From Octopus vulgaris (taxonomy: Eukaryota): a stretch of DNA of 64,000 bases. Where the stretch lies: positions 112,902,001 to 112,966,000 of the forward strand of contig OX597821.1 in assembly GCA_951406725.2 (NCBI GenBank), read 5' to 3'. Shown piece after piece: positions 1,212 through 59,662 of the stretch. The notes under the pieces were generated by a model. The model was not told where the DNA came from and made no database searches. It saw only the letters and a list, made by a program, of their open reading frames with translations. The position numbers and the translations under genes are program-made. The first letter of the stretch is position 1; each line of letters begins with the position of its first letter.

Positions 1212-2755
1212 ACACACATGTAATTCCTTTAAAATTCTTCAAGTTGTCTATAGGAAAAACTGATACAATCAAATGTAGAACTACTAAAGTATGTATGGGG
1301 TCGGTGACAACGGGCAGACACAATAACGAAATAACATAAACGTACGCTACATAAACAGGGAACCTGCCATCGTCAGCTGTCTAATCAGACATCTTCATAG
1401 TTTTGCGGCTTCGACACCCGAGGTAATATATATATGTATGCAACGACTGCTTTGAGAAGCAGTGCCCTACTATAATCTCAAAACAGAGAGGACATTCAAC
1501 GTATTCTTAGAAGCGCTTAATAAAATACTAGATGGTCACAGCTGGATCGTCTTTGATCATAGGCAGGCTAAATCAGAGCTGACCTGAATCTAAATAACAT
1601 CAGTTTAATTTACGATTACAAACTTTGAGTAACGCTTTGAATTAACAAGGCTTATAGTGAAAGATCGAACTCAAAGCAAGTTCAATCAATAGTCTTTCCA
1701 ATATCCCAATACACATCTTCTCTCTTTTAATACTTCAATCAATTCCGAGCATCGTTGATTGGATCTCGAGAGGGAATATTGCAAGAGATTCTGTACTATA
1801 AAATGATTCATCTATGAAGAGATTTCATTTACGTTTGAAACAAAGTTTTCTGTCCTTATACCATACTTATCTAGAATCATCGCAGATTGAAACATCATTC
1901 ATAGGTTGATTATATGATTTAGATTATCGTCTATTTTTCCAGGTAATTGTTTTAAACATTCTCGCTTTAGAACGATACAAGAACTAAACGCCTTAAATGA
2001 CGTTGTTATTGTTGTTGGAGAAGAAGGAGTTATGCATTTGCTAACATCTTGATAGAGAGAATATATTAGAACTGGAGAAAAATATAGTATTAAAAACAAA
2101 CATTGAACAAATTGTAACATTTTGGCATGAAAAGAAAATCTCGTCCGTCAAATTCTTAAATTGGATAATAAGAAGAGAAATTTCAATGAGAAACGTCGTC
2201 TGTATATGAAAATACGAACCTTTAACATCTTGGAATCTTCATTGTAAATTCTAACCGCAAATTAGACTCTTGTAATGTTTAGACAGTTTGATTTAGTAGA
2301 ATATTTTACTGTTCTTTGGCATCAATCCATAATCAGTTACCGAACCAAAGTAGTAGAATATTACTGTCTACTGAAAATTTCACTAAAATTCTTCATTCTT
2401 TGATTTAAACTCGTCCAAATGCCAGACTATTGAAAATACCAAAATACTAAAAATCTTTATGTTTATTGATGGTGAAATTAACTTGGTTGGTAGACATAAT
2501 CAGTCACATAGTTAATCACCAATTCCTGACACTTGGGGGAGTTTTTAGTGGCGGAGAGGTCTATGTTGTAAGCATTGGTTTCAGGACTCGGATCGGAGAA
2601 TAACGCTCTTCGTCGCACAAGTCTTGGCGGTCCACGAGAAAACCACTACTTATTTACATTGACCCAAGTACTTATTTCTTTTTAATTAAACCTGGTACTT
2701 ACTTTATCCTTCTTTTGCTCAACCGTTACGTTATGAGGACGTAAGTACACCAATA

Positions 2756-9330: not shown

Positions 9331-9989
9331 TAAAAAAAAAAAGAAAAAATAATAGGGTATTTTCCTATCCTCGAACTGACGTCCCGGCATCGAGTGCAGA
9401 CAGGGATGGGTGTCAAACTGCCTCGAAGACCGGGGGCTGGGGGAAAGCGCATGCAAGATTGGGGATATGAATTCCCATAATTTAGAGGAAATCAACCACA
9501 TAAGTGGGTTGTGGGAAGGGTAAAAAGTCGTGATGGTGCTCCAGCATGACCGCAGCCGCACTTACACGCTCACACACACGCCTATGTATACACACGCCTA
9601 TGTATACACACCCACACCCACACAAACACACACATATATAAATATGAATATATACATACATATATATACATATATATATATGTCCACACCCCACCCGTGC
9701 TTTCCCCACTCTCGCCTCCCCCACCTCCCAACATCACACCACACCACACTACACCATACAACATTACACATCACATCACAACACACCACCCACACACCCA
9801 TCCCCACATTTTCACACCTACGCATACATACACGCACACGTCCAGACCACCAGCCCTCTTTCACACGCACGTACATACTCTCTTATACACACACGCACCT
9901 TCGTGTTGGGGGTCATCTTTACTTTATTATCTCCCCTACTTCTTCCCTCTCGTGTGTGACCCTTCTGTCCGAAGTCAGTCGCCATGATA

Positions 9990-10180
9990 GATCGTTAGCC
10001 ACTACACACATTTTTTTCTCTCCCTTGTTTCTCTCCTTGTTTTTTCTGTGTCCCTTTCTGTAGAAGAGCGTAGGCTCGAAACGTAAAATACTTTTTCTAT
10101 TCCTGAGCGTTATACTAATACATCTGTTTGTTTTGTACACCACCTATCTTTGTCTTTTGTTTTTTCGTAAACTCTCACTA
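9990..10180 (+). mobile_element. Short T-rich repeat (Penelope pLTR-like) with minimal hammerhead-like motif at 10054-10089
   Basis: TTT CTGTAGA A GAGC-gtag-GCTC GAAA CG TA AAA. Near-identical reverse copy at ~48740-48920. Confidence 0.6.
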
Positions 10181-10310
10181 TGTATATATATATATTACCT
10201 CTTCTGGCTTAACGGCCCTCCATGTTTGCTTTCGTTTTGTTTGTTGTATGTTTCCACTGTCCTGTTTTATTTAATTTAATTCTTTCGCAGGAAGGACTAG
10301 CTCGACATAA

Positions 10311-10371
10311 CGTGTTCTGTCCTCACCTTCGAAACACGCTGGAGTTGAACTAGGGACAGCTGATGAAGGGG
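10311..10371 (+). ncRNA. Candidate non-circularly permuted hammerhead ribozyme, copy 1
   Basis: CGTG-T-T-CTGTCC(T) / CTTC-GAAA-CACG / (G)GGACAG-CTGATGA-A-GGGG. Stems I, II and III all pair and both core motifs are intact. Confidence 0.7.
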
Positions 10372-11260
10372 ATTTTTCCTTGTGTAGTTGTCTTGTACTC
10401 TGTTTTTTCGTTGTTAAACAAATGGTCCGTTCCATGCTGTTTTTACGTTTTCGTTTCTCGTTGAGTTCTACGTCTAATTGTGGTGTCCTGTACACACGTA
10501 TATATATTTATATATGCATGTATATATACATGTAGATGTAGGTACATACATATATGTTTGTATGTATGCATATATTTTATTTATTACACTATACATATAT
10601 ACGACGGGCTTCTTTCATTTTCCGTCCACCAAATCCACTCACAAGGCTTTGGTCGGCCGAGGCTATAGTAGAAGACATTTGCCCAAAGTGCCACGCAGTG
10701 GGACTGAACCCGGAACCATGTGGTTGGTAAGCAAGCTACTTACCACACAGTCACTTCTAAGATGGTGTGATATGACTTGTGGGAGATTTGGCTGTTATTT
10801 CTTGCATGCTGATCGATTACAACCGGACCTAATTCCAGACGAACCCCGAACACTCCTCTCCAATTTAAAATTAAATGAGGCTCCGACGTTCACGACATCA
10901 TGATGTCTACGAACGAAATCCTCTAATTACTCTTGTTAATTACATCTCATCATAGAAATACTTAGATGCGATTAATTAAGGCAAGGCTTCAATTTCCTCA
11001 TTTATTTTGTTTCTTTATTATTGTTGCTGTTGTTGCTGTTGTTGCTGTTGTTGTTGTTGTTGTTGCTGCTGTGGCTGTTGTTGTTGCGTTTGTATTCAAT
11101 TTGTCACAGGAAGTAGAAAAGCAGATGTCCTGTTGAGCTTTCTACGCTCTCTGTTTGGGATTAAACATTCAGATGAAACAAGGAATAGTAATTTTGCTTT
11201 TGGAATTCTTGAGGATTCTTTGATTCTTGCACATCCTGGTGAACTCGCATTTATTTTTAG

Positions 11261-11444
11261 GTGCAGGAGTGGCTGTGTGGTAAGTAGTTTGCTTCCCAAC
11301 CACATGGTTCCGGGTTCATTCCCACTGCGTGGCAGCTTGGGCAAGTGTTTTCTATTATAGCCTCGGGCCGACCAAAGCCTTGTGTGTGGATTTGGTAGAC
11401 GGAATCTGAAAGAAGCCCGTCGTATATATGTATATATGTATATG

Positions 11445-11508
<64 letters not shown>

Positions 11509-11710
11509 GTGTGTCTGTGTTTATCCCCTTAACATCGCTTGACAACCGATGCTGGTGTGTTTACGTCCCCGTAACTTAGCGGTTCGGAAAAAGAGGCCGA
11601 TAGAATAAGTACTAGGCTTACAAAGAATAAGTCCTAGGGTCGATTTCTTTGACTAAAGGAAGTGCTCCAGCATGGCCACAGCCACATGACTGAAACAAGT
11701 AAAAGAGTAA
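11261..11710 (+). mobile_element. Full-length tRNA-derived SINE (family B) with internal TA/TG microsatellite and CR1-group LINE-type 3' tail
   Basis: A-box-like TGGCTGTGTGG, B-box-like GGGTTCATTCCC, tail GTGCTCCAGCATGGCCACAG...TGACTGAAACAAGTAAAAGA. Further copies or fragments at ~3640-3790, 10602-10757, 11780-12281, 15755-15905, 16838-17006, 29270-29615, 32110-32240, 37435-37800, 46630-46955, 51675-52165, 59450-59912, 62670-63000. Confidence 0.85.
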
Positions 11711-12066
11711 AATAGTATATGTCAGTCATTGGAGTACGGCCACGCTGGAGTACGGCCATGCAACTCTTTCAAGGGATTTTAGTCGAATAAATACTCACCA
11801 GTGCTTATTTATTTATCTATATACTTACTTTTGCTTAAATGCGGTATCTATTTCATTAGTTTATTTCACCGAACTGCTAAGTTACGGGGATATAAAGACA
11901 CTGGCATCGGTTGTCAAGTAATGGCGAGTGGGGGGACAAACACAGACACATACACACATAAATACATACACACGCTCTCACACATACACACACACGCACT
12001 CACATATATATATATACATTATACATAGATATATATATATAAATATATATATGTATATATACATAT

Positions 12067-12124
<58 letters not shown>

Positions 12125-12595
12125 GACGGGCTTCTTTCAGCTTTCGTCTAACAAATCCACTCACAAGGCTTTTGTCGGCCCGAAGCTATAGTAGAAGACG
12201 CCCAAGGTGCTACACAGTGGGATTGAACCTGAAACAATACAGTTGGAAGGCAAACTTCTTGCCACACAGCTACGCCTGCGCCAGAAAATGGAGAAAGATG
12301 GATGTATTTGTATGATATAAAGATGTTGAAATTTAAAAAGGAAATAATAATACAAATAAATTATAAGTTATAAAACTAAAAAAGAAAATGGTAGATGCAA
12401 AAGAACCTACATATATGTTTCACTTCTAGCCCCTAGTTGATATGCAATTCTAAGCATTTGGTTATATGCTAAGAAAGGTATCATTTTTAACTATATGGGG
12501 CGGAACTTCTCCAGGGTTTTTATGAGTTTATAGAAGAAAGGATACCATATTTTTTTAAAGAAAATAAGGTTAACATATTTCTTGAAAGGATGCAT

Positions 12596-15081
12596 ACAAA
12601 ATAACTCCAACCAACCAGGGCAGGTAACATACTGGATCTCTGCTTCACAAATAATATGGATCTCATCCATAATGTGAAAGTGACACCGACACTACTCTCG
12701 GATCACAACATGGTAGAGCTGACCATGTACGGGCCAAAGGAAAGCATGGACATGCAGCCTACAAGAAACTCTCAGAATCTTTCCAGCTTGAACTTCCATA
12801 AGGCAAACTGGAAACAAATTGAGAAAGAGATCCTCAAACAAAAATGGCCTGAATGTCTCTCCTCGCCAGACATCGACATGAAACTTCAACAATTCATGTC
12901 TGTAATGCAAGCAATATGCTACAAATGTGTCCCAGAGAGAAAGGCCACTGTACACAAGAGCAAAATCCCCAGTGAGAGGAAAATTCTAATGAGACGGCGT
13001 ACAAAAGTTTCAAATCGCCTAAACAAACAAAGTGAAAGCAGTGAAAAGTCCCGCCGGAAAATAAAACTGTTGGAATTTGAAAAATGTCTGCAACTCTCCC
13101 ATGAAAAAGAAAGAGCAGACAAAGAAGCCTGGGCTATAGACAACATAAAATCTAACCCCAGAGCTTTCTACAGGTATGCCAAAGAAACAGCTTTGGTGCA
13201 CTGTAGGATAGGGCCACTCCTTGAAAAGGATGGCACACTCACAGGAATTCCAATGAGGGTAAGTGAAATACTAAATGAGCAATTCAGGAGTATTTTCACT
13301 CCACCCCTAGGGCATTTTCAAGTCAGCAATCCAACTGACTTCTTTACCACTGAAGATATAAAATCAGAGGCAGCGATGATTGATTACATCAATATAAAAG
13401 GAAGACGATGTAATAAAGGCTATTGATGAAATGAAAACAAACTCAGCTACTGGCCCCGATGGATTCCCAGCAATCCTCCTAAAAGTATGTAAGAGAATCC
13501 TAGCAAGACCACTGCAGTTCCTCTTTCAGAATTTCCTTGCAACTGGCAAACTTCCAAGAAAGCTGAAAGAAGGTAAAATATGCCCTATTCATAAAGGAGG
13601 TAGCAGAGCGGAGGCCAAGAACTACAGACCTATCTCTCTGACCTCACACATCAGCAAGGTCATGGAACGAATAGTCAGAAGGAAACTAATCACCTTCCTT
13701 GAAGAAAATGACTTGCTGCCTGACACCCAACATGGTTTCCGACCAGGAAGAAGCTGCTTAACTCAGCTCCTACAACACTATGACTGGGTGCTGAAACGAC
13801 TGCTCAACCACTCAAATGTGGAAGTCATATATCTCGACTTTGCAAAGGCCTTTGATAAAGTCGATCATGGAATGATATGTCACAAACTGCGTGATCTTGG
13901 CATAGTTGGAAAATTGGAAGAATGGCTTCATGACTTTCTGAAGGATAGAAGTCAGGTGGTAGTAGAAGTCAGCAAATAGTGAGCGGTGTTCCGCAAGGCA
14001 CTGTTTTGGGACCACTAGTGTTTATAATGGCCCTCTCAGACATGCCCTCAACCACGCAGAGAGCCACAATCACAAGTTATGCAGATGATACAAAAGTTTC
14101 ACAGGCAATACAGAACCCTGAAGACACTAAGCACTTGCAATGTGAGCTGGACAAAATATACAAGTGGGCTGAAAAGAATAGCATGCAGTTCAATGCTGAA
14201 AAGTTTCAAGCTTTATGCTATCAGCATGCAAAACTAAATGCAATACCCAATAAATACACTAGACCTGGAGGGATTGCAATCCCAGAGGCACAATCAGTGC
14301 GAGACCTGGGTATTTACATGAGTGATGATGCCACCTTCCATGTGCATGTTGCTAAATTGGCAATGAAATGTAGGCGGCTGACCGGATGGATTCTTAGAAC
14401 CTTTAGAACAAGAGACCAGGAAATCATGATGGTCCTCTAGAGGACACTTGTCCTAAGCCACTTTGACTATTGCTCTCAGCTATGGTCACCATCCAGTGTC
14501 AAGTTAATCACAGAACTTGAGGCGATCCAACGAAGCTACACGAAGAAGATAGCCTCTGTGCAGCATATAAGCTATTGGGAAAGACTCAAGAGATTGAGAC
14601 TATATTCCTTAGAGCGTAGGCGAGAAAGATATGCCATAATATACATCTGGAAGATCCTAGAAGGACTTGTCCCAAACTTTGGCATCGAGAGTTACACAAA
14701 TGCCAGAACTGGGCGCCACTGCAGAGTGCCAAGGACTCCAAATTTGCCATCAAGATGTAGGACGATATACTGTGATAGCCTGGGCTTCCGAGGCCCACAG
14801 CTCTTCAATATCCTCCCGAAGAACCTAAGAGACCTGCATGGGGTGGATGCAGATGTTTTTAAAATAAAACTGGATCTTTTCCTGTCAGGTTTCCCTGATG
14901 AACCAACTTCACGACAGGAGGTGCAGATGAGGGCAGCTGCATCAAACTCTCTCATGCATCAAATGGCAATTGCTAAAAAGCATTCGTGAAGTAAAATCAT
15001 GTAGCAACACCAAATTGCGGTGCCCCAGCATGGCCACAGCTTGTGAGCTGAAACTAGATAAAAATAAAAAAATAAAATAAA

Positions 15082-15082
<1 letters not shown>
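12596..15082 (+). mobile_element. 5'-truncated, disrupted CR1-group LINE (end of APE endonuclease plus reverse transcriptase)
   Basis: PTRAGNILDLCFTNN...LSDHNMV (APE end), [44 protein letters not shown]. Frameshift ~13400, indel ~13965, premature TAG at 14438-14440; A-rich tail. Confidence 0.93.
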
Positions 15083-15127
<45 letters not shown>

Positions 15128-15128
15128 T

Positions 15129-15207
<79 letters not shown>

Positions 15208-16003
15208 TTATATGTGCATTTAGGTAGGTATTAGAGAAAGGAGGGAGAGAGAAACCTGTGCATAACGTTTTTTTTCTTAATCTTCGGATATTTACAAAAT
15301 TATTCTACAATTCTCGGCAGAAGAATTCCAGTTTCAATTCCAATTGTATAATATTGGTTCCCACAAGTGTTGGGAATTCCCTCACTTCTAAATCTACTCT
15401 CCATGTTCTTCGGTAAAGCCTTGACAGAATTGAAACTCATTCTTGTAAGCTTATTTTTCATGCTTCAGTCAACGAGTGCAATCGATGCCATACCAAACGC
15501 CATAATCAATGAACCATTCTTCTAAAACTTCAGCATGCTAGAATGGTATTAGAACAGTTGAATGAGTATACTGCTTTATTATGCAAGATTTTCAAGACCC
15601 CAGAGAATTCGAGGCGGCATCTTAATCAAATCTTCATTGTATCGTCAAACACTGGATTAAATTGTTTCTTTAATGTACATCAAGTTCGTTGTGTTAACTC
15701 GCAAATCCCTTACGTTTATGCACTTACTTCACACATTCTTATTTCTTGAAGAAGGCATAGCCGTGTGGTTAAGAAGCTCCGTTTGCATCCACGCGGTTTC
15801 GGGTTCAGTCCCACTGCGCGGTACCATCGACAAGTGTCTTCTACTATAGCCCCGGGCCGACCAATGTCTTGTAAGTGGATTTGCAGACAGAAACGGCAAA
15901 GAAAAAAAAGTCTGTCCCATATATATATATGTGTGTATGGGCGTGTGTGTGTGTATGTGTGTGCATATATATGTGTATACATACATACATACACATATAC
16001 ATA

Positions 16004-16073
<70 letters not shown>

Positions 16074-17326
16074 GCAAAGTAAAATTGCAAGGTACTGCAC
16101 GAGTGAAAATATATAGGAAAGAGGATTGGAAAATGCAGAGGTCTTTTAAAGGTGTTTATTGACTTCACAGGTTTCACACGTTTTTAAAAAATGATTTTCA
16201 AAAGTAAAATGTAAGCCTTTGTGGTGTTAAAATGGTTATCAGAGATGTATTAGAATACAGTGATACAGTCTTTGACAATAAGAAAATGTTAAGAAATAGA
16301 ATCTTTGACAATGGTAAGAAAATCTTAAGACAGGTTTTGTGTTTAAACAGTTTACATAAAAATGTTTTAAAAAGTAGTAAAATAAATTCATAATTATTTA
16401 TAAGTTCATCAAAAATTCTGATTGTATATAAACATATATACAGAAAGAATTTGTAGACAGTATTTGATAGGACAAAGCATGTATTGCTTAGTCAAAACTT
16501 CATCAGAAATCATGTTTGAATATTTATACAGAATTTTAGATATACACATATATATGCATATATATGTACACACACAAATATACAAACGGTGTTCCTTTTT
16601 TTACGTCCTCGTAACTTAGTGATCCAGTAAAATAGAACCAATAGAATACGTATCACACTTGTCAAAAAGAATCGAAAAGAAAAAATTATTGGGTCCATTT
16701 GTTCGACTGAAGGTTTTTCAAGGATGGACTCCAGCATGGCCGCAGCCCAGTGACTGGAAGCAGTAAAAAAAATCAACAAGAGGTGCAATGATCGTCACAC
16801 AGGAAACTTCAAATACAAAAAAAAATACGAAGACTCAGGAGTGGCTGTGTGATAAGAAGCTTGCTTCCGAACCACAGGGTTCCGGGTTCAATCCCACTAC
16901 ATGGCTCCTTGGGCAAATGTCTTCTACAAGTGTCTTCTAATATAGCCTCAGGCAAGCCAAAGTCTCGTGAGTGGATTTGGTAAGTAGAAACTGAAAGAAA
17001 CCCGTCGTGTATGTATGTACGTGTATGTATATATATATATATATATATATAAATCAAAGGTAGGACAGAAAGAACACAACAAACGGAAACCAACAAAACA
17101 CATGCGGAAAAATAGACGATGGCACGTTAAACGACAAACAGGACAAAAACAAGATGCACGAATCATTCGGAGCCGATTTCCTCATCAATCGGAGTCCGGA
17201 CCCTCCATGCTTGTTTTCGTTCGGTTTCCTTGTATGTCTCCACTATCCTGCTTTTGTTCCAAACTTTGACCATCCATAAATCCATAATTTTATTTTGGTA
17301 CTTATAAGAGCAATTGTCTTCGGAGA

Positions 17327-17388
17327 CTCATATTGTCGTTCAATGCTCAAAATGAGGAGTAGATAGACCGCGACAACTGATGAAGGGT
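17327..17388 (+). ncRNA. Candidate non-circularly permuted hammerhead ribozyme, copy 2 (G12->A, probably inactive)
   Basis: CTCA-T-A-TTGTCG(T) / GCTC-AAAA-TGAG / (G)CGACAA-CTGATGA-A-GGGT. Same topology as 10311-10371 with different stem sequences; flanks are homologous. Confidence 0.65.
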
Positions 17389-17507
17389 CGTTCTTTGTGT
17401 TACTTGTTCTGTTTTCCATTTGTTTCTCTCGTTGTTTGCGCATTGAACTCATTTGTTCTCATATTTTATGTTGTTTACTATTGGTGACGTCCTCTACCCA
17501 TATATGC

Positions 17508-17542
<35 letters not shown>

Positions 17543-17546
<4 letters not shown>

Positions 17547-17881
17547 GGGTGCATGGCTCAGTGGTTAGAGCGTCGAGCTTACGATCTTGAGGTTGTGAGC
17601 TCGAATCCCGGACCGGGCTGCGCGTTGTGTTCTTGAGCAAGGCACTTTATTTCACGTTGCTCCAGTTCACTCACCTGTAGAAATGAGTTGCGACGTCACT
17701 GGTGCCAAGCTGTATCGACCTCTGTCTTTCCCTTGGATAACACTAGTGGCGTGGAGAGGGGAGGCTGGTATGCATGGGCGACTGCTGGTCTTCCATGAAA
17801 ACAGCCTTGCCCGGACTTGTGTCTAGGAGGGTAACTTTCTAGGTGCAATCCCATGGTCTGTGTCGTGACCGAAGGGGGTCT
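17543..17881 (+). mobile_element. tRNA-derived SINE (family D)
   Basis: A box TGGCTCAGTGG, B box GCTCGAATCCC, central TTCTTGAGCAAGGCACTT, end GACCGAAGGGGGTCT; sits within (TA)n. Confidence 0.85.
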
Positions 17882-17889
17882 CCGATATA

Positions 17890-17924
<35 letters not shown>

Positions 17925-17926
<2 letters not shown>

Positions 17927-20090
17927 ATTGATTGATTGATTGATTCTAGTTTCAGCTTATGAGCTGTGGCCATGCTGGGGCACCGCCATTTGGTGTTGCT
18001 ATTTGGTTTCACTTCATGGAGGCTTTCTAACAACTGCTATTTGGTGCATGAGAGAGTTCGATGCAGCTGCCCTCATCTGCCCCTCCTGCCGTGAAGTTGG
18101 TTCATCTGGGACACCTGACAAGAAGAGATCCAGCTTCATTTTAAAGACATCTGTATCCACCCCATGCAGGTCTCTCAGGTTCTTCGGGAGGATATTGAAG
18201 AGCTGTGGGCCTCGGAAGCCCAGGCTATCACAGAATCTTGTCCTACATCTTGATGGCAGGTTTGGAGTCCTAGGCACCACGCAGTGGCGCCCAGTTCTGG
18301 CATTTGCGTAACTCTCGATGCCAAAGTTCAGGACACTTCCCTCCAGGATCTTCCAGATGTATATTATGGCATATCTTTCTCGCCTACGCTCTAAGGAATA
18401 GAGTCTCAATCTCTTGAGTCTTTCCCAATAGCTTATATGCTGCACAGAGGCTATCTTCTTCGTGTAGCTTCGTTGGATCGCCTCAAGTTCTGTGATCAAC
18501 TTGACACTGGATGGTGACCATAGCTGAGAGCAATAGTCAAAGTGGCTTAGGACAAGTGTCTTCCAGAGGACCATCATGGTTTCTTGTTCTCTTATTCTAA
18601 AGGTTCTAAGAATCCAGCCAGCCAGCCGTCTACATTTCATTGTCAGTTTAGCAACATGTACATGAAAGGTCGCGTCATCACTCATGTGAATACCCAGGTC
18701 ACGCACTGATTGTGCCTCTGGGATTGCAATCCCTCCGGGTCCAGTGTATTCCTTGGGTATTGCATTCAGTTTTGCATGCTGATAGTATAAAGCTTGAAAC
18801 TTTCCAGCATTGAACTGCATGCTATTCTTTTCAGCCCACTTGTATATTTCGTCCAGCTCACATTGCAGGTGTTTAGTGTCCTCAGGGTTCTGTATTGCCT
18901 GTGAAACTTTTGTATCATCTGCATAACTTGTGATCGTGGCTCTCTGCGTGGCTGAGGGCATGTCTGAGAGGGCCATTATGAACAGTAGTGGTCCCAGAAC
19001 AGTGCCCTGCGGAACACCGCTCACTATTTGTGTGTTAATGGAGGTGGCCCCATTGGCTACTACCACCTGACTTCTATCCTTCAGAAAGTCATGAAGCCAT
19101 TCTCCCAGTTTTCCAACTATGTTGAGATCACGCAGTTTGTGACATATCATTCCATGATCGACTTTATCAAAGGCCTTTGCAAAGTCGAGATATATCACTT
19201 CCACATTTGAGTGGTTGAGCAGCCGTTTCAGCACCCAGTCATAGTGTTGTAGGAGCTGAGTTAAACAGCTTCTCCCTGGTCGGAAACCATGTTGGGTGTC
19301 GGGCAGCAAGTCATTCTCTTCAAGGAAGGTGATCAGCTTCCTTCTGACTATTCGTTCCATGACCTTGCTGATGTGTGAGGTCAGAGAGATAGGTCTATAG
19401 TTCTTGGCTTCCGCTCTGCTACCTCCTTTATGAATGGGGCATATTTTACCTTCCTTCAGTTTTCCTGGAAGTTTGCCAGCTGCAAGGAAGCTCTGAAAGA
19501 GGAACTGCAGTGGTCTTGCTAGGACTCTCTTACATGCTTTTAGGAGGATTGCCGGGAATCCATCGGGGCCAGTAGCTGAGTCTGTTTTCATTTCATCTAT
19601 AGCCTTGGTTACATCGTCTTCCTTTATATCGATGTAATCTATCGTCGCCGCCTCTGATTTTATATCTGCAGTGGTAAAAAAGTCAGTTGGATTGGTGATT
19701 TGGAGATGCCCAAGGGATGGAGTGAAAACACTCTTGAATTGCTCATTCAGTATTTCACTTACCCTCATTGGTTTTCCTGTAAGTGTGCCATCCTTTTCGA
19801 GGAGTGGCCCTATTCTACAGTGCACTGTAGCTGTTTCTTTGGCATACCTGTAGAAAGCTCTGGGGTTAGATTTTATGTTTTCTATAGCCCAGGCTTCTTT
19901 GTCTGCTCTTTCTTTTTCATGGGAGAGTTGCAGACATTTTTCGATTTCCAACAGTTTTATTTTTAGGCGGCACTTTTCACTGCTTTCAATCTGTTTGTTT
20001 AGGCGATTTGAAAATTTCGTACGCCGTCTCATTAAAATTTTCCTCTCTCTGGGGATTTTGTTCTTGTGTACAGTGGCCTTTCTCTCTGGG

Positions 20091-20095
<5 letters not shown>
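17925..20095 (-). mobile_element. 5'-truncated CR1-group LINE with uninterrupted RT-containing frame
   Basis: Closely similar to 12927-15058 in reverse; 3' tail ends in (CAAT)n; 5' end abuts a (TA)n tract. Confidence 0.95.
18014..20095 (-). CDS. LINE ORF2 fragment (reverse transcriptase, no endonuclease, no native start)
   Basis: Open frame from CVPERK to stop with all RT motifs ([17 protein letters not shown]). The first ~37 aa of the 730-aa ORF are microsatellite. Confidence 0.85.
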
Positions 20096-20139
<44 letters not shown>

Positions 20140-20253
20140 CATACATACATGTACATACATACTTACATACATATATATATATATATTTATATATATATAT
20201 ATACATATATATATTTATATATATGTAGATATATGTGTGTGTATTATTTATTT

Positions 20254-20286
<33 letters not shown>

Positions 20287-44999: not shown

Positions 45000-45380
45000 T
45001 AAATCCTAACTCTAACCCTGACCTCCAAACATTAAAATCTAGCCTTAAGCTCTAATCGCAAACCCTAAACCCTAACCCTAAACCCTAATCTCACTCTAGC
45101 CTTAAACCCTAACACCAAACCCTAAATCCTGACACCAAACTCTAAACCCTAAATGCAAACGCTAATCACAAACCCTAAGCACAAACCCTAACCCTAAACT
45201 CTAACCCCAATCCCGAACCCTAAACCATAACCCCGAACCCTAACCCAAACCCTAAATCTTAATCCTGAGCTCTAATCCCAAATTCTAAGTACAAAACTCT
45301 AAACACTAAATCCTAAACACTAACCGTAAATCTTAACCCTAAAATCTAACCCTGACCTTACACTCTAAACTCTAACCCCA
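45000..45380. repeat. Degenerate telomere-like CCCTAA/CCCTAAA array
   Basis: For example AACCCTAAACCCTAACCCTAAACCCTAA at 45061. Confidence 0.85.
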
Positions 45381-48739: not shown

Positions 48740-48742
<3 letters not shown>

Positions 48743-48920
48743 GGAAAGTTCACGAAAAAAAACAGAAGATGAAGACTGGTGGTATACAAAACAAACAGAT
48801 GTATTATTATAACGCTCAGGAATAGAAAAAGTCTTTTACGTTTCGAGCCTACGCTCTTCGACAGAAAGGGACACAGAAAAAACAAGGAGAGAAAAAATGT
48901 GTGAAGTGGCTAACGATTTT
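48740..48920 (-). mobile_element. Reverse copy of the 9990-10180 repeat with minimal hammerhead-like motif at 48833-48868
   Basis: CTTT CTGTCGA A GAGC-gtag-GCTC GAAA CG TA AAAG on the minus strand. Confidence 0.6.
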
Positions 48921-59139: not shown

Positions 59140-59662
59140 AAATTACTACCAATATTTAAAGAATAATTGGTGCTGTAGCTCTAATGTGTCCCATCTGGGA
59201 CCATCTTAGAATTTACTGCTCATCCTCTACTTTCCACCCCATGGGCCCAGAAGCATATACATGCTTCAACAGCAAACCCAAAGGTGGCACCCTGATAAAA
59301 GTGTCACCTGGAGGAGACCACAAACCCTTAAGTATGCTACTGGGAAGAATGGCATTAATTATTAGCCTCAAGGTTTGGTACAAGGCCAGCAATTTTGGGG
59401 GAAGGGGTGAATTGAATACATCATATATATATATATATACACATATATACTTTTATTCTTTTACTTGTTTTGCCTGTGGCCATGCTGAAGCACTGCCTTT
59501 AGTCAAACAAATAAACAAATCGACTGCAGGAATTATTCTTTGTAAGCCTAGTACCTATTCTATTGGACTCTTTTGCCAAACCACTAAGTTAGAGGGACGT
59601 AAACGCACCAACATCGGTTGTCAAGTGATGGTGGGGGGACAAACACACAGACACAAATACAT

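Follow-up and report, generated by a model that had tools for sequence, protein, structure and literature searches.

The window analysed here, a stretch of 64,000 nucleotides of Octopus vulgaris DNA (contig OX597821.1, positions 112,902,001 to 112,966,000), is microsatellite-rich animal DNA in which a short non-coding repeat is present in three copies (Table 1). Copies 1 and 2 align over their whole length with a score of 89, compared with 30.5 ± 4.2 for shuffled sequences (0 of 300 shuffles as high), and a core-anchored global alignment of their 3′ halves scores 85 against 48.3 ± 7.5 (0 of 500). Copy 3 was found by nhmmer with a profile of these two copies (E 0.099), and its local scores against copy 1 and against copy 2 each exceed those of 500 of 500 shuffles; it keeps the helix II strand Y, a mutated GAAA block (position 1412), the 3′ strand of helix I and the core word CTGACGA (1376).

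The first-pass annotation had described two copies of a dispersed non-coding element of about 350 bp, with a common upstream block, a T-rich downstream segment and a common end motif. Both copies are genuine homologues, to which the truncated third has to be added. The upstream block (83% over 54 nt between 10216-10268 and 17201-17254, E 1.5e-9; 0 of 300 shuffles as high), the ribozyme segment (0 of 300) and the end motif (4 of 300) are indeed common to both, whereas the T-rich segment, present in both, does not by itself exceed what composition gives (76 of 300). The unique part is shorter than proposed, about 300-320 bp, the rest of 10195-10560 being TA tract. The absence of coding capacity and of a tRNA head was borne out: the longest stop-free frames are 74 and 71 codons, and ARAGORN found no tRNA in 9500-18500, where decayed heads could escape detection. 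No RT or GIY-YIG frame lies beside any of the three copies in the window, and no tandem copy of the repeat occurs within it.

A TA-type tract is found at the 3′ end of all three copies, and also at the 5′ end of copies 1 and 3; target-site duplications are unreadable inside such tracts. The homology of copies 1 and 2 starts within about 15 nt of each other, and because their 5′ limits nearly coincide, a defined 5′ end fits better than random truncation. At the 5′ junctions of copies 1 (10196, +) and 3 (1425, −) a (TA)n tract leads into TACCTC, a combination present nowhere else in the window, even though the two copies start at different places within the element. The inverted segment adjoining copy 2 is possibly an inverted relative of the repeat; its similarity was equalled by 15 of 500 and 60 of 500 shuffles, and locally by 19-20 of 200.

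Table 1. Features of the repeat, its predicted hammerheads and neighbouring elements (positions within the window)
Feature	Position	Strand	Remarks	Basis
Copy 1 of repeat	10196..10498	+	between two (TA)n tracts	alignment, family depth profile
Upstream block common to copies 1 and 2	10216..10268	+	contains ATG and donor-like GTATGT at 10246; putative splice role	
Predicted split hammerhead, copy 1	10291..10366	+		descriptors, covariation with copy 2
Copy 1, helix II	X 10291-95 / Y 10326-30	+		
Copy 1, P helix	10297-10306 / 10344-53	+		
Copy 1, helix III	10311-15 / 10334-38	+		
Copy 1, helix I	10317-23 / 10353-59	+		
Copy 1, core	H17 10316; GAAA 10331-34; CTGATGA 10360-66	+		
T-rich tail of copy 1	10367..10498	+	end is GTCC-N-(TA)n; 10368-71 is an alternative weak helix II strand	
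Copy 2 of repeat	17178..17499	+	diverged; runs into (TA)n	alignment to copy 1
Predicted split hammerhead, copy 2	17308..17383	+	G12 (17349) is A; P helix reduced	
Copy 2, helix II	X 17308-12 / Y 17344-48	+		
Copy 2, helix III	17327-31 / 17352-56	+		
Copy 2, helix I	17333-39 / 17370-76	+		
Copy 2, core	H17 17332; CTGATGA 17377-83	+		
Inverted T-rich segment at copy 2 5′ end	17052..17195	−	decayed core-like word; (TA)n end	weak similarity
Copy 3 of repeat	1296..1425	−	5′-truncated at (TA)n tract just upstream of Y	two-copy profile search and shuffles
Separate repeat	9985..10180	+	minimal hammerhead-like core of ordinary order at 10058; no sequence relation to the permuted-hammerhead repeat	
Separate repeat, second copy	48741-48917	−	copies 85% identical	
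Endonuclease/RT LINE, two copies	12605-14989; 18014-20257	+; −	one with long open frame; not Penelope-like	

In copies 1 and 2, hammerhead blocks follow one another in the order X-P-site-GAAA-P′-CUGAUGA, with a predicted cut at 10316/10317 in copy 1 and at 17332/17333 in copy 2. A descriptor allowing all six block orders identified site-GAAA-CUGAUGA as the order of type SGC; the circular block order of hammerhead types I-III is absent from the repeat, and the Rfam comparison yielded nothing at gathering score anywhere in the window, while its 27 weak matches in 9900-10600 include no ribozyme family. The CUGAnGA core is present in all three copies, at 10360, 17377 and 1376 (−). Copy 1 also has the GAAA block, the A15.1-U16.1 pair and an H17 other than G, whereas copy 2 has A at G12, a CpG-type change, and copy 3 has G at 15.1 and no site block. 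Because G12 is lost, copy 2 is predicted to be inactive, and copy 1 is predicted to be almost intact, its one private mismatch lying in P. A strict three-block descriptor matched copy 1 alone in the window and nothing equally strong in 60 shuffled windows; relaxing G12 added copy 2 and one weak match. A weak CSG match at 59272 (−) was treated as chance, since its helix II has 2 bp. Between copies 1 and 2, eight of the 17 core pairs are changed on both sides (3 of 5 in helix III, 2 of 7 in helix I and 3 of 5 in X/Y) and none of the 17 is broken. A conserved hammerhead-type fold is very probable.

The strand before GAAA (Y) finds its best partner in the upstream strand X and not in the bases after CUGAUGA. 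In each of the two full copies X and Y form five Watson-Crick pairs, with duplex energies of −4.6 and −6.3 kcal/mol, whereas the downstream partner offers four pairs, two of them G-U in each copy (−2.6 and −2.0 kcal/mol). The P helix, with 9 of 10 pairs in copy 1, starts directly after X, and its partner strand lies just before the 3′ strand of helix I. When the upstream sequence was shuffled and the other blocks were kept fixed, X plus P arose in 27 of 3000 and 28 of 3000 trials; a split descriptor gave 0 strict and 5 relaxed matches in 150 shuffled windows, the split model having been chosen after seeing the data. In a control with the CSG word pattern, 47 metagenome loci had the core words and none of the 47 had the helices. 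Nested folding prefers other pairings and leaves helix III unformed (probability at most 0.03), which is expected for a pseudoknotted fold, pseudoknots being outside the model, and so gives no support. The hammerhead of the repeat is likely opened between A9 and G10.1, with helix II completed from the upstream strand. An HDV-like reading, made by eye, was dropped, as it had no fitting L3/P1.1, and splicing that would join A9 to X was dropped because there is no donor at A9 in copy 1. At 10246-10290 and 17232-17308 (+), the donor-like GTATGT and an AG at the start of X could bound introns of 45 nt and 77 nt; the AG is shifted by one base from one copy to the other, and the candidate introns recall the short intron beside the Drosophila Penelope hammerhead.

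Relatives of the repeat are found well beyond the window, in agreement with the annotation's proposal of a dispersed family. Parts of copy 1 occur in 20 of the 24 public runs listed, with word shares of 0.30-0.44 (11 studies, six coded organisms), and family relatives were abundant in three of four runs compared with copy 1 (1934, 1809, 0 and 648 contigs), the run with 0 contigs being a guessed-RNA run, for which zero can be false. No RNA run with the repeat is listed among the 24, and neither observation says anything about expression. In the two deepest runs the summed depth was 1-11 thousand at 10197-10268 and 39-923 thousand at 10269-10496, and single listed family contigs have depths near 30-90; there are thus many copies, more of them of the 3′ part, summed depth not being a copy number, and the gradient is as 5′ truncation would give. 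A 3- to 4-fold rise in depth across the predicted cut site was set aside as evidence, since immediately ahead of the site, at 10307-10310, copy 1 departs from the family sequence. Variants at a level of at least 5% fall at nine positions within 10291-10366, none of them in the core, helix III, X or Y; the GAAA block, the A15.1-U16.1 pair and the non-G H17 are without such a variant in three runs, and A at G5 was seen in one loose-end consensus of one run. The variant at 10301 restores the P pair in about 99% of depth; that at 10351 disrupts a P pair except where 10299 is G, a partner present in one contig. The family pattern had 0 matches in metagenome contigs, and an octopod-type SGC pattern had 0 in viral contigs.

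Cleavage of type-SGC RNAs has been validated; they come from metatranscriptomes and metagenomes, and, in the accessible text, Eckert et al. (2023, PMC10085705) report none from the genome of any known organism. The octopod repeat resembles their types SGC and CSG in the order of site, GAAA and CUGAnGA, in two crossed pseudoknots, in a Watson-Crick helix that ties helices I and II, and in a length of about 76 nt. It differs in being part of an animal repeat and in having both the 5′ strand of helix II and the tie helix at the 5′ end. In type SGC the helix II strand comes directly after CUGAnGA and the tie helix follows, whereas in the repeat a weak four-pair version is possible there and the stronger partner and tie helix lie upstream. 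The arrangement is a circular permutation of the type-SGC/CSG wiring, opened between A9 and G10.1, within the block C that Eckert et al. assumed to be indivisible.

The likely carrier of this ribozyme is suggested by the Naiads, Penelope-like elements that are (TA)n-biased, 5′-truncated and described, in the accessible text, as lacking canonical hammerheads (Craig et al., 2021, PMC8557442). There, octopus Naiads are listed as (TA)n-targeting, and eight consensus sequences are flagged with two core halves 35-50 nt apart, the flags being limited to ‘HHR_core’ and ‘HHR_half_core’. We inspected 41 of the 54 Naiad consensus ends in File S5 by eye, without computation (38 at 400-600 nt, 3 shorter), and recognized a permuted hammerhead in 16 of them, nine of the split form and seven of type CSG; 25 ends had neither, and the count of permuted forms leaves out Naiad_Sdum, whose core is decayed, as well as Ppac and the ostracod ends. 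The split form was seen in Bfor (comb jelly), Amil, Aacu and Anas (corals), 2_Movir (box jelly), Plae (acanthocephalan), Obim and Ovul (octopuses) and Esco (bobtail squid), which amount to six lineages, because the three coral sequences are near-identical, as are the two octopus sequences. These ends have 5-6 X/Y pairs (4 of 5 in Esco) and a P helix of 5-16 pairs by eye; flaws are one helix II mismatch in Esco, one helix I mismatch in Aacu and a helix I of 2 bp in Bfor. Complete type CSG was seen by eye in Parc, 1_Nbra, 2_Nbra, 3_Nbra, Hcon, Hpol and Smim (six nematode, one spider).

The octopod repeat and the Naiads both have a T-rich 3′ end, a (TA)n target and 5′ truncation; both occur in octopods, and in both the permuted ribozyme lies near the 3′ end, as judged by eye. 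Copy 1 has a helix I word in common with the octopus Naiads, and copy 3 a Y-GAA word and an extra T after A9. Unlike published Naiads, the repeat has no ORF in the window, and outside the core its copies do not resemble Naiad_Obim or Naiad_Ovul by eye, so it represents another family. Naiads also show partial tandems and inverted 5′ copies; here, 5′ truncation is matched by copy 3 and the depth gradient, the inverted neighbour is weakly similar, and no tandem occurs in the window. Because no RT or GIY-YIG frame accompanies any copy, the connection rests on shared ribozyme wiring and target and not on linkage; since split or CSG forms occupy 16 of the 41 ends, the 3′ end of a Naiad-type element, or a short element derived from one, is the most likely carrier, and we regard a Naiad-type origin as likely. 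Against it stands the description of cephalopod Naiads as old remnants (PMC8557442), given that many family contigs are more than 95% like copy 1. The annotation had named, as the case against its proposal, an internal part of a known element without structural conservation; half of this holds, as the repeat resembles the end of elements of a known class (Naiad), yet its structure is strongly conserved. In many bivalve, hydrozoan and hemichordate Naiad ends in File S5 the corresponding position is occupied by another conserved structured motif, which lacks CUGAnGA. Naiads appear to exchange one ribozyme-like module for another.

On balance, the repeat is probably a Naiad-type 3′ end (pseudo-LTR region), or a short derivative of one, that carries a split, permuted hammerhead. 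The pairing pattern might instead be chance or a non-catalytic structure, given short helices, two full copies, a post-hoc model and pairing known from sequence alone; with the shuffle and metagenome controls, the eight double changes and the same wiring by eye in six animal lineages, this is very improbable. The same carrier could hold an ordinary type-SGC hammerhead whose helix II is made from the bases after CUGAUGA plus one extra A, X being a competing off-switch strand or a duplication relic. Four such pairs are possible in both copies, X pairs with the downstream tail in nested folds, and an extra unpaired base at the A9 step is common in hammerheads of Penelope-like elements (PMC4209133). 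Tolerance of an unpaired base there also makes a break between A9 and G10.1 plausible, full strand exchange being a step beyond. Against the ordinary register stand the two G-U pairs among the four in each copy, the position of P directly after X, just as P follows helix II in CSG Naiads, and the split-form Naiad ends, in which, by eye, no pair after A9 is possible in seven of nine and two pairs are possible in two of nine. The ordinary register is thus unlikely, and helix II in this octopod family is quite likely of the split kind.

A free-standing, non-autonomous, retrozyme-like element with fixed ends, mobilized in trans and possibly passing through ribozyme-made circles, would account for the similar 5′ limits of copies 1 and 2, a length of about 300 bp and the lack of an ORF, and non-autonomous derivatives of Penelope-like elements are known (PMC8557442; preprint 10.64898/2026.07.22.740005). 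Animal non-LTR retrozymes are likewise short, non-coding, hammerhead-bearing and related to Penelope-like elements, yet they are defined by tandem units with type I hammerheads (10.64898/2026.07.22.740005), neither of which is seen for the repeat in the window. Each copy has one ribozyme, copy 3 is truncated, and the runs with contigs list no head-to-tail joint (three runs, a weak test); with the cut site inside the copy, a retrozyme monomer made by ribozyme cutting is unsupported. This origin is rather unlikely, and the annotation's ribozyme-processed unit and circular intermediates are not supported by these data, although its core, a multi-copy, non-coding retroelement piece with a permuted hammerhead, related to Penelope-like elements, is. 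Microsatellite bias is not specific to Naiads, being known also for Neptune (PMC8557442), and the flanks differ from published octopus Naiads, so that the tail of another Penelope-like clade such as Neptune, or of an unrelated retroelement that acquired a Naiad-type ribozyme, might be considered; this is improbable, as canonical or minimal type I hammerheads are reported for other Penelope-like clades (PMC8557442, PMC4209133). The minimal type I hammerheads of Penelope and Poseidon pseudo-LTRs likewise lie in a terminal repeat, and most genomic copies of these elements are single truncated stubs (PMC4209133, PMC11167929); these hammerheads are of ordinary order, their helix III is very short or missing, and they likely depend on dimers or protein, whereas full helices I-III are predicted within one unit of the octopod repeat.

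In the proposed mechanism, the RNA of the repeat would fold as a hammerhead whose core backbone is open between A9 and G10.1, and would cut after H17. Through target-primed reverse transcription of RNA that is mostly uncut, a Naiad-type RT/GIY-YIG protein would deposit 3′ stubs with 5′ truncations of varying extent in TA microsatellites; cutting may serve to trim element transcripts or to turn them over, and would not define the repeat unit. Copies 1 and 2 extend 120-155 nt upstream of the predicted cut site, which lies mid-copy, and would therefore have come from uncut RNA, the main insertion substrate in vitro for an Anolis element (PMC11167929). Copy 3 starts within 7 nt downstream of the would-be cut, an isolated and weak indication that cut RNA was copied.

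A broader proposal, to which we give an even chance, is that many Naiads, in hosts ranging between comb jellies and octopods, have active hammerheads of non-circularly permuted order, one widespread form having a seventh wiring in which the core is built from four strands with A9/G10.1 open, and that the octopod repeat is a high-copy carrier. If true, such hammerheads would be present in animal chromosomes at high copy, CUGAnGA and helix II could no longer be assumed to be one indivisible block, and it would become clear why Naiads seemed to be without the ribozyme kept by other Penelope-like elements. The CSG form of nematode and spider Naiads and the split form would be circular permutations of one wiring, so that a route of ribozyme rewiring, terminal-repeat duplication, could be traced. 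We found no report of a retroelement-borne non-circularly permuted hammerhead or of an A9/G10.1 split in the open-licence literature (the Eckert supplement by word search only), and neither is described in the accessible text of PMC13725137, PMC10162972, PMC11300833 or PMC3088659.

The separate repeat at 9985-10180 has a TA tract in common with copy 1. A motif common to six metagenome loci in two sequence variants (L009:2105, L015, L018:2333, L025:5001, L034:5001 and L035) combines the two hammerhead core words with a short hairpin and has no helix I in any order tested. Among the 120 best matches listed for the RT frame of the LINE at 18014-20257, one bears an organism name, the octopod Argonauta hians, at 56%, and a degenerate array of AAACCCT-like, telomere-like units lies at 45038-45379.
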